This document shows positions 52,491 to 56,355 of a stretch of 64,000 nt of DNA, piece after piece. Source of the DNA: a bacterium (GTDB lineage: Bacteria > Patescibacteriota > Minisyncoccia > Phycocordibacterales > GCA-002787175); the NCBI GenBank assembly GCA_030699905.1, contig JAUYKQ010000027.1, positions 1,293-65,292 on the forward strand, in the 5' to 3' direction. A model generated the notes under the pieces. That model worked only from the letters and a program-made list of their open reading frames with translations. It was not told the DNA's origin and searched no databases. How positions within the stretch are numbered: the stretch's first letter is position 1; each line of letters starts with the position of its first letter. A program made the translations under genes and the position numbers.

Positions 52491-52763
52491 ATGGCAACAA
52501 AAAAGGCGGGCGGTACAGCTAAAAACCTGACTGATTCACAACCAAAGTATCTTGGCGTCAAACTTTATGCCGGACAAAAAGCGGGTATTGGTTCCGTTAT
52601 TGTTCGTCAAAGAGGCACGCGGTACTTGCCCGGTAAAAACGTAGGTCTGGGAAAAGACCATACTCTTTTCGCTCTCAAGGAAGGCAAGGTCTCTTACACC
52701 AACAGGAGAAAAATCAGGTGGAACGGCGACAAACTGACCAAAAAACAAGTTCACGTTACGTAA
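52491..52763 (+). CDS. rpmA: 50S ribosomal protein bL27
   Basis: [25 protein letters not shown]. Confidence 0.97.
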
Positions 52764-52950
52764 GAACCTATCTCCAATCTCAGCGCTAAATATGGGGCCA
52801 TAAATAAGAGCTCATCCGCTAAAACGGCGCAATTTCGGCTAAAAAACTTCGCTTCGTCCTCTACATATCATGATATGCCTCGGACTCCAGCTTGTTTTTT
52901 ATCTCGAAATTGCGCCGTTTTACTCGGATGTGAGATTGGAGATAGGTTCT
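52763..52950. mobile_element. MITE-like fold-back element, family E (188 bp)
   Basis: Perfect 20-bp terminal inverted repeat AGAACCTATCTCCAATCTCA; nested internal inverted repeats. Confidence 0.8.
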
Positions 52951-52955
52951 AAAAT

Positions 52956-54278
52956 TCACGGCTGGTTTTTCAGCCGATTCAATTCTTCTCTTACGACCAC
53001 TCTGTCATCCCACGGAAGTGTTTTTCCGTTTATTGTTATTGTTTGCTCCGCTCCTTTTCCGGTTACTATGACGACGTCGCCACCCGTCGCGAGAGATAGG
53101 GCTTTGCGGATGCCTAGACGTCTGTCCAGTACAACATACAAGGTCTCTTCTCTTTTGGCTCCGGCGCTCTCTGCCGATTTGGCAATATCTTCCGCTATTT
53201 CTCTCGGGTCGTCCTCGTAGGCGTCAACGTTGCTTACGATAATAAAGTCGGCCCTCTCCGCCGCCACGCGACCCATGACGGGACGTTTGCCCTTATAACG
53301 GCCACCGCCCTCCGCGCCTAAAACCACAATGACTTTGTGGCTACCCGAGAGCAGTTTAGCGGTGAGAAGAGCGGCCTCCATTGAACGCCCCTCGTGAGCG
53401 TAGTCAACTATGGCCGTGAATGGCTCTTTTTGCACGACTTCCATTCGGCCGGGAATTGTGGCCAATTCTTTAAAACCGTTTGCTATTTTTTCGTCCGATA
53501 CGCCAAGGAAACGACCGATAGCTACGGCCGGCAGGGCGTTGTACACGTTAAAAACGCCCGGAAGACGCAAATCAAAGTTACTGCCATCTACTTTGAAAGA
53601 CACTGAAAATCCTTCGGCTTTAATGTTCTCGGCCAAGACCGACGCCCCTTCTTTTAGTCCGAAAGTTATTTTTTTGTCGGCTTTAAAAGACAAAAAATAA
53701 TTTTTTTCATCATCATCGCTGTTGACCATAATGACCTTGTCCACTTTTCTGCCGTCTATGATTTTGTGTCTGTGTTTATGGAGAGAACTAAAAATCTTTC
53801 CTTTTGCTTGTTTGTACATTTCAAAACTGCCTCCATGAGAGGGAAGATGCTCCGGAGACAAGTTTGTAAAAACCAAAAAATCATAGTTTATTCCTTTATG
53901 ACGGAACTGTTTTATGCCCTCGGAAGTGGTTTCCACAACCGCCACTTTGCAACGCTCGCTTACCATTTGCCTCAAGTATTTTTGTATTTCGCTACGGCCA
54001 AGCATGGTCATGTGATAGTCGTTTCTCAACTCCTTTTCACCGATGCGTATGTTGGCCGTTGTTAAAATTCCGGTTTTTATTCCTCCGTTTTGCAAAGCGC
54101 TCCATATGAAATTGGCTGTGCTTGTTTTACCCTTTGTTCCCGTAATGCCGATAACTATGAGTTTTTCCGACGGAAAACCGTAAAAAGCCGCTCCGCAGAC
54201 GGCCACGATGAAATGACAAACGCTTCCGTATGTCCGTCGCAGTCCAACAGGAATTATTTTTCTAAAAAAACTTCTCAT
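52956..54278 (-). CDS. murE: UDP-MurNAc-dipeptide--diamino acid ligase (variant specificity loop)
   Basis: GITGTKGKTS, ETTSEG, FTNLSPEHL, PGRM, VDYAH; DNPR motif absent. Confidence 0.9.
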   Translation of the reverse strand: MRSFFRKIIPVGLRRTYGSVCHFIVAVCGAAFYGFPSEKLIVIGITGTKGKTSTANFIWSALQNGGIKTGILTTANIRIGEKELRNDYHMTMLGRSEIQKYLRQMVSERCKVAVVETTSEGIKQFRHKGINYDFLVFTNLSPEHLPSHGGSFEMYKQAKGKIFSSLHKHRHKIIDGRKVDKVIMVNSDDDEKNYFLSFKADKKITFGLKEGASVLAENIKAEGFSVSFKVDGSNFDLRLPGVFNVYNALPAVAIGRFLGVSDEKIANGFKELATIPGRMEVVQKEPFTAIVDYAHEGRSMEAALLTAKLLSGSHKVIVVLGAEGGGRYKGKRPVMGRVAAERADFIIVSNVDAYEDDPREIAEDIAKSAESAGAKREETLYVVLDRRLGIRKALSLATGGDVVIVTGKGAEQTITINGKTLPWDDRVVVREELNRLKNQP

Positions 54279-54988
54279 TGTTTGATTTTAGCGCCGGCGG
54301 CTTCTATGGTTTTTTCTGCCAAAACAGACAGAGAGTCCAAGTATCTGCCGGCAGTTTGAGTTTGAAAGTCGCCTTTAAAGTATGATAATTCAGTGCAAGC
54401 AAATATGAGTACCTCCGCTCCTTTTTCGTAGAGTTCTTTTGTCACGATTTCAAATTTTTTCTTATCAGCTCTTCCTTCTTTTTTGATGCCCTCGTATATA
54501 AGGTTCATGAGGATTTCTTGATTTTTATCCGACGGCAAAATCACTTCCATGTCTTCCTCTTCGCAATATTTCTCGTATACCCGTCCCTCTCTTGTGCCTG
54601 TGGTTGCCAAAACTCCTATTTTTTTTGCCCCAAAAAGTTTTTTTGCGCTCCTGACACTCTCAAGAGGCATATTTATGATTGGCGCGGAGATTTCTTCTTG
54701 GATAAGGTCGTAGAAAAAGTGCGTAGTATTGCAAGGAATAACAATAACCTCTGCCCCCATTTTTTCAAGGGCCTTGGCGTCTTCTTTGACAAGGGAGAGA
54801 AACGGTTCGTATTTTTTGTTCAGTATCACATCTGTACGGTCGGGCAGGGAAGCGTGGTTATAGATTATCATGTCTATATGTTCCTGGTCTTTGGACGCTT
54901 CTGTCCTCTCCAGTATTTCTTTGAAAAAATACTCCGTGGCAAGAGGCCCCATACCGCCCAAAACTCCTACTTTTTTTCGTTCCTTCAT
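54275..54988 (-). CDS. Aspartate racemase (RacD-like)
   Basis: GVLGGMGPLAT, PDRT, IPCNTTH, ACTELS two-Cys racemase motifs. Confidence 0.92.
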   Translation of the reverse strand: MKERKKVGVLGGMGPLATEYFFKEILERTEASKDQEHIDMIIYNHASLPDRTDVILNKKYEPFLSLVKEDAKALEKMGAEVIVIPCNTTHFFYDLIQEEISAPIINMPLESVRSAKKLFGAKKIGVLATTGTREGRVYEKYCEEEDMEVILPSDKNQEILMNLIYEGIKKEGRADKKKFEIVTKELYEKGAEVLIFACTELSYFKGDFQTQTAGRYLDSLSVLAEKTIEAAGAKIKQ

Positions 54989-54992
54989 AAGA

Positions 54993-56201
54993 TTAAAAAT
55001 ATTTATAATACTTCCAAAAGTGACTTAAATATGACCGTACAAGATAAAGTGTCCGCCTAAAAGAGTAGTCCCCTTTGTAAAAAAGCGGATTGATAATTTG
55101 GCCTTTGGCGGAAAGTTCTTTCATTTTTTGGCGGAGCGCCAGGTCTCTAACGTGTTTGTAAGCTACCCGAAAAGGTATGACCAGCCAGAGTTTCTCGCGC
55201 GCTTTGTCGGTAAAGTCCGGAATTTTCCCGAAAATATATTCGCCCGCCACGTACTCGGCGATGTTATGCCCGCCGGCGGTTACGTAGTAGTTGCTACGGC
55301 CCTGTCTGACGTTAAGTTCAAAAATCTTAAACTTGCCGTCTCTTTCGTCGTATTTGATGTCCATATTGGAAAAACCGACAAAATGCATGTCCTCCAAAAA
55401 GCGACGAATTTTCTCTTCAAGTTCAGAGTCATTTTCATTTATAATGACTGCGTGGTTTCCAAGACCCTTTGGCGTGTGCTCCTCAAGCAGGACGTGGCCG
55501 AGGGCAGAGAGCCGGACTTTACCGTTTTTATCGCTATAGCAAGTCAGAACCCGCATTTTGGAGTCATCGCCGGGAATAAATTCCTGTATTATTAAGGAGT
55601 CATCATAGCCGGCCAAGTATATTTCCGTCAAAACCTTTTCAAGTTCCGACCGGTCGTTTAATTTATAAACTTTTTTCTGTCCGTCAAAATGGTGTTTCCA
55701 ATAGTTCACTCCGTTTGAGGGCTTTACGATAACAGGGAAGGGGAAGGGGAGGTTAAAAGAAAGACCGTCACTTTTTTTATGTACCAAAGTCGCTGGATGC
55801 GGAAGATTGTATTGGTCGCAGAGTTTGTAAAACGTCTCCTTTTTCATGAGCTTGGCCATCATCTCCTCGTCTATATAAGGGGCTATGATGTTGTCTCTCA
55901 ATCCCTTCTTATGTTTGCCGATAAGTTCCACATAAGAGTCGCCACAAGCCAAAAGAATGATTTTCTTTTCGGGGTGTTTTGAGGCGAAAGAGTTTATTAT
56001 GGTTAAAAAAAGCTTTTCGTTGTCAATTTCCGGCTCCATGTAAAAATCCGCTATTTTGCTGAAATGGCTGGGGCCTGAAGATGCCTTCCCTAAAACGGCT
56101 GATTTTACGCCATAGGCCTCGTGAAAAGCTCTGGCCACGCTGTATGTGTTTATGTCGCTTCCCAAGAGTGCCGGTATAAAGTTTTGACTCCTGAATTCCA
56201 T
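54993..56201 (-). CDS. ATP-grasp D-aspartate ligase (Asl/YxbA-like)
   Basis: LLGSDINTYSVARAFHEAYG, QEFIPGDD, VLLEEH, ELNVRQGRSNYY. Confidence 0.85.
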   Translation of the reverse strand: MEFRSQNFIPALLGSDINTYSVARAFHEAYGVKSAVLGKASSGPSHFSKIADFYMEPEIDNEKLFLTIINSFASKHPEKKIILLACGDSYVELIGKHKKGLRDNIIAPYIDEEMMAKLMKKETFYKLCDQYNLPHPATLVHKKSDGLSFNLPFPFPVIVKPSNGVNYWKHHFDGQKKVYKLNDRSELEKVLTEIYLAGYDDSLIIQEFIPGDDSKMRVLTCYSDKNGKVRLSALGHVLLEEHTPKGLGNHAVIINENDSELEEKIRRFLEDMHFVGFSNMDIKYDERDGKFKIFELNVRQGRSNYYVTAGGHNIAEYVAGEYIFGKIPDFTDKAREKLWLVIPFRVAYKHVRDLALRQKMKELSAKGQIINPLFYKGDYSFRRTLYLVRSYLSHFWKYYKYF

Positions 56202-56284
56202 AGTCAAATATTAGCATATTTTACCGCAGTTAGAGCAACTTATATGGACAGAGTGCTTCTAAAAGGTTAATATTAGTGCCGAAA

Positions 56285-56355
56285 CGGGGTGTAGTATAGT
56301 GGTAGTATTCACGATTCGGGTTCGTGAGACGGGAGTTCGACTCTCCCCACCCCGA
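56285..56355 (+). tRNA. tRNA-Pro (CGG)
   Basis: CGGGGTG/CACCCCG acceptor stem, anticodon loop TT-CGG-GT, GTTCGACT T-loop. Confidence 0.93.

Follow-up and report, generated by a model that had tools for sequence, protein, structure and literature searches.

A predicted D-aspartate ligase and racemase in the Fem slot upstream of a Patescibacteria murE gene

Introduction

The closest described systems for the branching of peptidoglycan by D-aspartate are AslA/RacD of Lactococcus lactis and Aslfm of Enterococcus faecium. In these systems, which lead to an L-Lys-D-Asx bridge, an ATP-grasp ligase is accompanied in an operon by a two-Cys aspartate racemase (PMC4155827, accessible part). AslA is the ATP-grasp enzyme joining D-aspartate to the L-lysine of the stem peptide, and racD belongs to the same operon in L. 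lactis, as described in the accessible parts of reviews (PMC4155827, PMC13631041). Here, we consider three minus-strand genes coding for an ATP-grasp ligase, a two-Cys racemase and a MurE in a Patescibacteria genome of 816 kb (98.9% complete, 31 contigs). They lie in the window, the whole stretch of 64,000 nucleotides that was analysed, which is part of contig C25. The genome of the window is called G000; other G-numbers designate comparison genomes and L-numbers designate loci.

In the reading that we favour, with a probability of roughly 0.62, the racemase would make D-aspartate, a MurE of a Patescibacteria subfamily ("type B") would add as third residue of the stem a diamino acid, likely L-lysine or L-ornithine, whose side-chain amine stays free, and the ligase would join D-aspartate to this amine. 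Ligase and racemase would have entered this Patescibacteria group from Bacillota long ago and would have replaced a tRNA-dependent Fem transferase in a cassette made of a branching enzyme and a type B MurE. The product would be a Lys/Orn-D-Asp bridge; since G000 gave no operon-type AsnH match, this bridge would probably lack amidation. An initial annotation of this DNA had proposed such a bridged wall, built by a module of probable Firmicutes origin fused to the organism's own murE. Its interpretation stands for the ligase and racemase families, for a likely import from Bacillota and for the Patescibacteria nature of MurE; it does not stand for the MurE motif as evidence, for a sole murE, for the unusual character of bridging or for lactic acid bacteria as the nearest counterpart.

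The ligase and the racemase

That the ligase is AslA/Aslfm-like, as initially put forward, is consistent with its full-length homology to a ligase of lactic acid bacteria, its ATP-grasp fold and its presence in an operon with a racemase. The protein has no match in Pfam and no sequence match in the PDB, and comparison with NCBIfam gave only carbamoyl-phosphate-synthase-like matches below cut-off. Its structure model (pLDDT 87) matches the fold of ATP-grasp enzymes, all of them distant (11-17% identity), the first being an L-amino acid (dipeptide) ligase. Three segments, VIVKPS, IIQEFIPG and FELNVRQGR, were located that we take to be ATP-grasp motifs. Over its full length, the ligase is 35% identical (413 columns, E 1e-100) to a Latilactobacillus curvatus ligase, presumably AslA, the gene of which follows a racemase gene. 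Identity reaches 38% with proteins of L. fermentum and L. crispatus, the latter encoded beside asnB. Homologues of a non-wall ATP-grasp kind were also considered. They are just 24-29% identical, and the one retrieved adjoins a glycosyltransferase gene and sits on a very long branch in the tree; this reading was rejected.

The racemase carries the two expected cysteines, Cys86 (PCNT) and Cys198 (ACTE), and is RacD-like, as had been proposed. It scores 195 bits with the aspartate racemase model TIGR00035 (cut-off 93) and only 42 bits with the glutamate racemase model (cut-off 147), and its best PDB match is the aspartate racemase 1jfl (E 5e-45).

Full-length ligases are rare in the phylum. Among the 41 relatives and the 301 genomes of the class, a single genome carries the gene, each time G000. 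At the phylum level, 14 of 401 genomes match, five at full length and nine through weak partial matches, the five being G000 and four members of a single distant family. As a side observation, G324 (L021, L239) and G298 (L023, L240), of a distant Patescibacteria family and 97-98% complete, possess ligase, racemase, murA, murB, murG, mraY and ddl; in their relatives G133 and G255, a long MurE carrying EDPR is found.

Among the best 80 of 546 genome loci, the nearest ligases are those of two other Patescibacteria-type loci, L028 and L029 (59-60% identity). The other loci of this set are from Bacillota/Firmicutes/Clostridia (69) and Coriobacteriia (8), one being unclassified. Outside Patescibacteria, the nearest relatives are clostridial and reach 55-57% identity, compared with 35-38% for lactic acid bacteria. 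The taxonomic distribution of homologues thus makes import of ligase and racemase from Bacillota likely, which agrees with the Firmicutes origin proposed at first, although the trees do not fix the donor. In the ligase tree, a weak group of 15 rows with L028 and L029 is obtained (support 80), with a long branch and no reliable root; the racemase also groups with those of L028 and L029 (support 89). Entry of the two genes would be ancient because codon use has ameliorated: that of the operon lies between the 37th and 70th percentiles of 459 G000 open reading frames (ORFs), hence typical, and its GC content is also genome-like.

A MurE of the Patescibacteria type

The third protein scores 312 bits with the MurE model TIGR01085 (cut-off 257) and its first fold matches are MurE enzymes. 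It lacks the N-terminal Mur_ligase domain and matches PF08245 and PF02875 only. The segment SNVDAYEDDP, to which attention had been drawn, is present, and its V-D-A-Y aligns with the D-N-P-R of M. tuberculosis and E. coli-type enzymes. The protein is devoid of the arginine that binds diaminopimelate (DAP). However, the loss of DNPR is not specific to the operon, being the norm in this order. In an alignment of the relatives' MurEs (29 loci listed of 39 matching relatives), DNPR is found in none of the 29 and the motif ends with Tyr instead of Arg, so that the idea of VDAY marking the operon as special had to be abandoned.

These MurEs split into two clades, type A (DYAHT, EDPY, GKGTD) and type B (DYAHE, usually NVDPY, GKGAE), type B being defined by similarity to the window MurE (E <= 1e-112). 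The consensus of the subfamily is NVDPY, present in 116 of the 119 closest homologues. The operon MurE groups with Patescibacteria type B proteins (SH-aLRT 96-97) and is up to 62% identical to Patescibacteria proteins, the named closest homologues being from Patescibacteria/Parcubacteria; joining it to clostridial operon MurEs is rejected by the AU test (31 rows, p-AU 5.8e-14). The view of an "own murE" thus holds as to its Patescibacteria origin. It fails in that this gene is neither the sole nor the ancestral copy: the check for a second murE was positive, with a type A copy behind ruvA (C29:8108-9379), 38% identical to the operon copy, and the ruvA-linked site is the ancestral murE site.

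The MurE of S. aureus has no arginine in the motif, binds the amine of lysine through Asp406 and Glu460 and is still active as a P408A variant; the arginine of DNPR is known to bind the DAP carboxyl group (PMC3829189, accessible part). In the operon MurE, the glutamate is kept (GKGAE, residue 411), an aspartate is found in the loop and a Pro-to-Ala change is equivalent to P408A. From this comparison, addition of meso-DAP by either G000 MurE appears unlikely, lysine and ornithine being inseparable by sequence.

The Fem slot upstream of type B murE

A regularity concerns the position upstream of type B murE. A FemAB gene directly precedes murE in 15 of the 18 other complete type B loci, with a gap of -22 to +170 bp, and 5 of these 15 show the same 4-bp overlap with murE as the operon studied here. 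Within 1.5 kb of type A murE, FemAB was found in 0 of 25 loci. In G000, the racemase and ligase genes occupy the slot otherwise held by FemAB, and no FemAB match was found in this genome, a local profile giving only E 0.002 on a 103-aa ORF. The three type B loci departing from the rule belong to G647, where Fem is found elsewhere in the genome, to G439, which is a ligase carrier, and to G013. In the genus of G000, G002 has a fem-murE pair and G001 has type A only.

In G439 and G715, the two other ligase carriers with a Patescibacteria title, a type B MurE is present as well, and Fem gave no match in either of them or in the three distant ligase carriers examined. The sole MurE found in G439 is of type B and is located at the ruvA site; the type B gene of G715 is truncated where its contig ends and did not enter the adjacency count. 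The likely exchange of two chemistries at one slot supports the idea that type B MurE would supply a residue with a free amine. These counts overstate independence because 8 of the class-level type B genomes form one family.

Type B MurE occurs in 5 of 41 order-level and 15 of 301 class-level genomes. FemAB itself is found in 196 of the 301 class genomes but in 5 of the 41 order genomes. Thus, contrary to what was first supposed, a bridged wall is not unusual for the class; only the D-Asp version is rare. A Patescibacteria-type MurE beside the ligase was found in none of 160 other loci, where ligase-adjacent MurEs give at most 187 bits compared with 427-537 for type B. Among the best 80 of 529 metagenome contigs, no second ligase locus with such a MurE was found.

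Cell-wall pathway of the genome

Genes for murA, murF and PBP-like proteins, named by recognisable sequence and supported by homology, occur in the window, and mraY, murG and ddl elsewhere in G000. None of the 3 genomes of the genus has a MurD match, and overall 18 of the 41 genomes are without one. The sole MurC-family protein (C27:19900-21459) passes neither the MurC model (274 bits for a cut-off of 335) nor the Mpl model (221 for 389). Its best PDB match, 3hn7, is an Mpl, and it has an insert aligned to the Mpl-specific segment AFFDKRSK; Mpl is reported to be weakly active on L-Ala-D-Glu (PMC3060825). Strong matches to this Mpl-like ligase are found in 8 of the 18 MurD-less genomes and in none of the 23 having MurD. 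Since no MurD was found, the UDP-MurNAc-dipeptide used by MurE may be provided by the Mpl-like ligase, and such a salvage entry is plausible in view of these matches.

The surroundings of this gene call for some remarks. The region C27:18527-26310 (L189:6528-14311) also carries an ATP-grasp fusion (671 aa), mraY, an arginyltransferase-like gene and a gene for a PLP enzyme. The ATP-grasp part of the fusion has matches in 4 of the 41 genomes, all MurD-less, and the arginyltransferase-like gene adjoins that of the Mpl-like ligase also in G011 and G020. It may be speculated that a tRNA-dependent arginyltransferase-like enzyme could make a dipeptide, bypassing MurC and MurD. An asparagine-synthase homologue also encoded on C27 was considered as AsnH. 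Its gene has glycosyltransferase-like genes as neighbours, and its score against the L028 enzyme is 306 bits, compared with 654-658 bits between the L028/L029 enzymes and the operon-linked clostridial one; it is likely not an AsnH, this being short of proof.

A wider scheme may be imagined, in which the genus dropped MurC and MurD, an Mpl-type ligase loads ready-made L-Ala-D-Glu on UDP-MurNAc, two alternative MurEs pick residue 3 and an exchangeable cassette (Fem in the sister species, D-Asp ligase and racemase here) sets the cross-bridge. We regard this scheme as possible, though doubtful. If true, exchange of a two-part cassette would let Patescibacteria change their wall chemotype, and G000 could make two stem types.

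Weighing the readings

Several observations weigh against the D-Asp-for-Fem swap. Concerning the ligase, the L. curvatus record is annotated only as 'carboxylate--amine ligase' and serves as a stand-in for the E. faecium and L. lactis enzymes; the ligase tree does not place the window branch, so that the donor is not fixed; and G324 and G298 show no Mur ligase match despite having ligase and racemase. The racemase also passes the cysteate racemase (CuyB) model, with 200 bits for a cut-off of 190. As to MurE, PMC3829189 shows that the motif alone does not set specificity, type B enzymes have Val at the amine-binding position Asp406/Asp413 with an Asp one place on, and G000 has a second murE, of type A. 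In the pathway, MurD, alanine racemase (Alr) and a second Asp/Glu racemase or MurI gave no match in G000, and murB (C13:5089-6264, L241) is split in the assembly by an in-frame TAA, which may reflect a pseudogene, readthrough or an assembly error. Finally, G013 has a type B MurE with neither Fem nor ligase found, and related genomes are not independent samples.

Some of these facts can be read otherwise. The module may not serve the cell's own wall, being either a relic of wall synthesis in a lineage that is giving it up or a system acting on ready-made host precursors. The lack of MurD and Alr matches and the stop in murB would fit, as would the two ligase-racemase carriers without Mur ligase matches and the fact that the operon MurE has Y328 instead of D and A353 instead of P at positions almost invariant in its subfamily. 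We hold this to be unlikely: the three frames are intact and coupled, murA, murF, mraY, murG, ddl and PBP genes are present, and the absence of MurD from 18 of 41 relatives, 8 of them with the Mpl-like ligase, points to a bypass rather than to decay.

A chemistry other than D-aspartate branching may also be envisaged. The racemase, as the only PF01177 protein of G000 and one that passes the CuyB cut-off, would make D-Glu or another acidic D-amino acid, for instance cysteate, and the ligase would add it or make a peptide for the Mpl-like ligase, in line with the missing MurD and with a dipeptide ligase as first fold match. This is quite improbable, given that the glutamate racemase model is far under cut-off and that the fold matches of the ligase are all distant. 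Moreover, the MurD-less G001, G002 and G029 are without any PF01177 match, so that the lineage needs no such gene for D-Glu, and in G439 the same ligase-racemase pair, with asnH, occurs alongside MurD and a second racemase.

Arrival of all three genes as one block from Clostridia, hence without a Fem swap, would account for the same order being found in 42 of the best 80 loci, nearly all from Bacillota, but is very improbable for a MurE of 440 aa with up to 62% identity to Patescibacteria proteins, the grouping of which with clostridial operon MurEs is rejected and the match of which beside a ligase elsewhere stays at or below 187 bits. A block transfer followed by in-place replacement of murE is conceivable and would lead to the same end state as the swap.

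Locus and assembly

The three coupled ORFs were found as initially described (Table 1), all intact, with a 4-bp gap (TCTT) between the ligase stop and the racemase start and a 4-bp overlap (ATGA) of racemase and murE. An alternative TTG start two codons upstream would give a ligase of 404 aa. A promoter and terminator scan of the operon gave nothing decisive.

Table 1. Features of the operon and of its borders (window positions).
Feature	Position	Strand	Remarks
ATP-grasp ligase, AslA/Aslfm-like (predicted D-aspartate ligase)	54993-56201	-	402 aa from ATG
Two-Cys racemase, aspartate racemase subfamily (RacD-like)	54275-54988	-	237 aa; PF01177, TIGR00035
MurE, Patescibacteria subfamily ("type B")	52956-54278	-	440 aa; TIGR01085, PF08245, PF02875
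MurE specificity loop SNVDAYEDDP, residues 349-358	53205-53234	-	alignment
tRNA-Pro(CGG), divergent from the operon; one border of the inserted block	56285-56355	+	
Intergenic repeat between rpmA and the murE end; other border of the block	52763-52950	.	inverted repeat

The block lies between rpmA and tRNA-Pro. In G031, rpmA directly precedes an exonuclease gene which, in G000, is found beyond tRNA-Pro, and in G001, of the same genus, tRNA-Pro has no such operon beside it. The block is therefore an insertion or a translocation at this site. The repeat at its border has 20-nt perfect inverted arms (52763-52782 and 52931-52950) and is nested, with 27-nt arms at 85% as well. Contigs of the public run X1 break or branch there with loose ends, as expected of a dispersed repeat, and the repeat appears to be a dispersed element.

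A single contig of run X1, which may itself be a source of the assembly, covers 52872-56339 with zero differences and a depth of 21.5 over the block, compared with 18 and 23.4 for the flanking contigs. A second run of this groundwater study also yielded a contig that crosses the murE-racemase junction. Chimeric assembly and contamination were rejected on the basis of GC content, codon use and the public X1 contig with its flank-like depth.

Significance and comparison with known systems

The enzymes themselves are of known kinds. What is new is the replacement at the slot, the association of ligase carriers with type B MurE (3 of 3), and the setting with two MurEs and no MurD. In the literature searched, neither a D-aspartate ligase nor an aspartate racemase was reported for Patescibacteria/CPR, most subscription journals and supplementary gene tables lying outside the scope of the search. 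Nor did titles and abstract openings of the literature on CPR wall chemistry reveal one, the accessible part of PMC11809585 being silent on the point. The three enzymes of the locus can be assayed with no need to grow the organism, and the locus would represent a natural exchange between two unrelated chemistries of bridge formation at a single genetic position. It also raises the question of how stem peptides are made in a MurD-less lineage.

Compared with AslA/RacD and Aslfm, the operon is found in a Patescibacteria genome of 0.82 Mb, is coupled to a short MurE and is accompanied by neither an operon-type asnH nor a MurD that could be found. The order ligase-racemase-murE, the commonest among the best 80 loci, is also that of operons in Lachnospiraceae, Anaerovoracaceae and Oscillospiraceae, where the ligase is 47-56% identical and the operon MurE is likewise without DNPR. 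There, a second murE is sometimes nearby, recalling the two copies of G000. However, the operon MurE of these bacteria forms a separate clade of 500-aa proteins (EDPG/EDAG) and their second MurE has DNPR, whereas both MurEs of G000 are without the Arg. As side observations, the Lachnospiraceae-type loci L030, L039, L045 and L053 harbour two murE genes at a short distance, EDPG being encoded by the operon copy and DNPR by the other, and an Oscillospiraceae-type operon MurE of ~790 aa (L077:8135-10513) is fused to an amino acid kinase domain (PF00696), which hints at ornithine supply.

The asnH-ligase-racemase cassette of L028 and L029 has the nearest relatives of both ligase and racemase, in genomes with type B MurE and no Fem match. 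It differs by an extra AsnH-like gene and by a murE located elsewhere, and G439 has MurD and Alr. The gene order around the L029 cassette matches L028 and contig C4 of G000, and the title of L029 (Saccharibacteria) may be wrong. Lastly, the Patescibacteria cassette of FemAB and type B MurE shares with the operon the MurE subfamily, the upstream slot and, in 5 loci, the 4-bp overlap. The difference lies in the branching enzyme, which here would be an ATP-dependent D-amino acid ligase with its racemase and, in the Fem cassette, is a tRNA-dependent transferase of L-amino acids or glycine.

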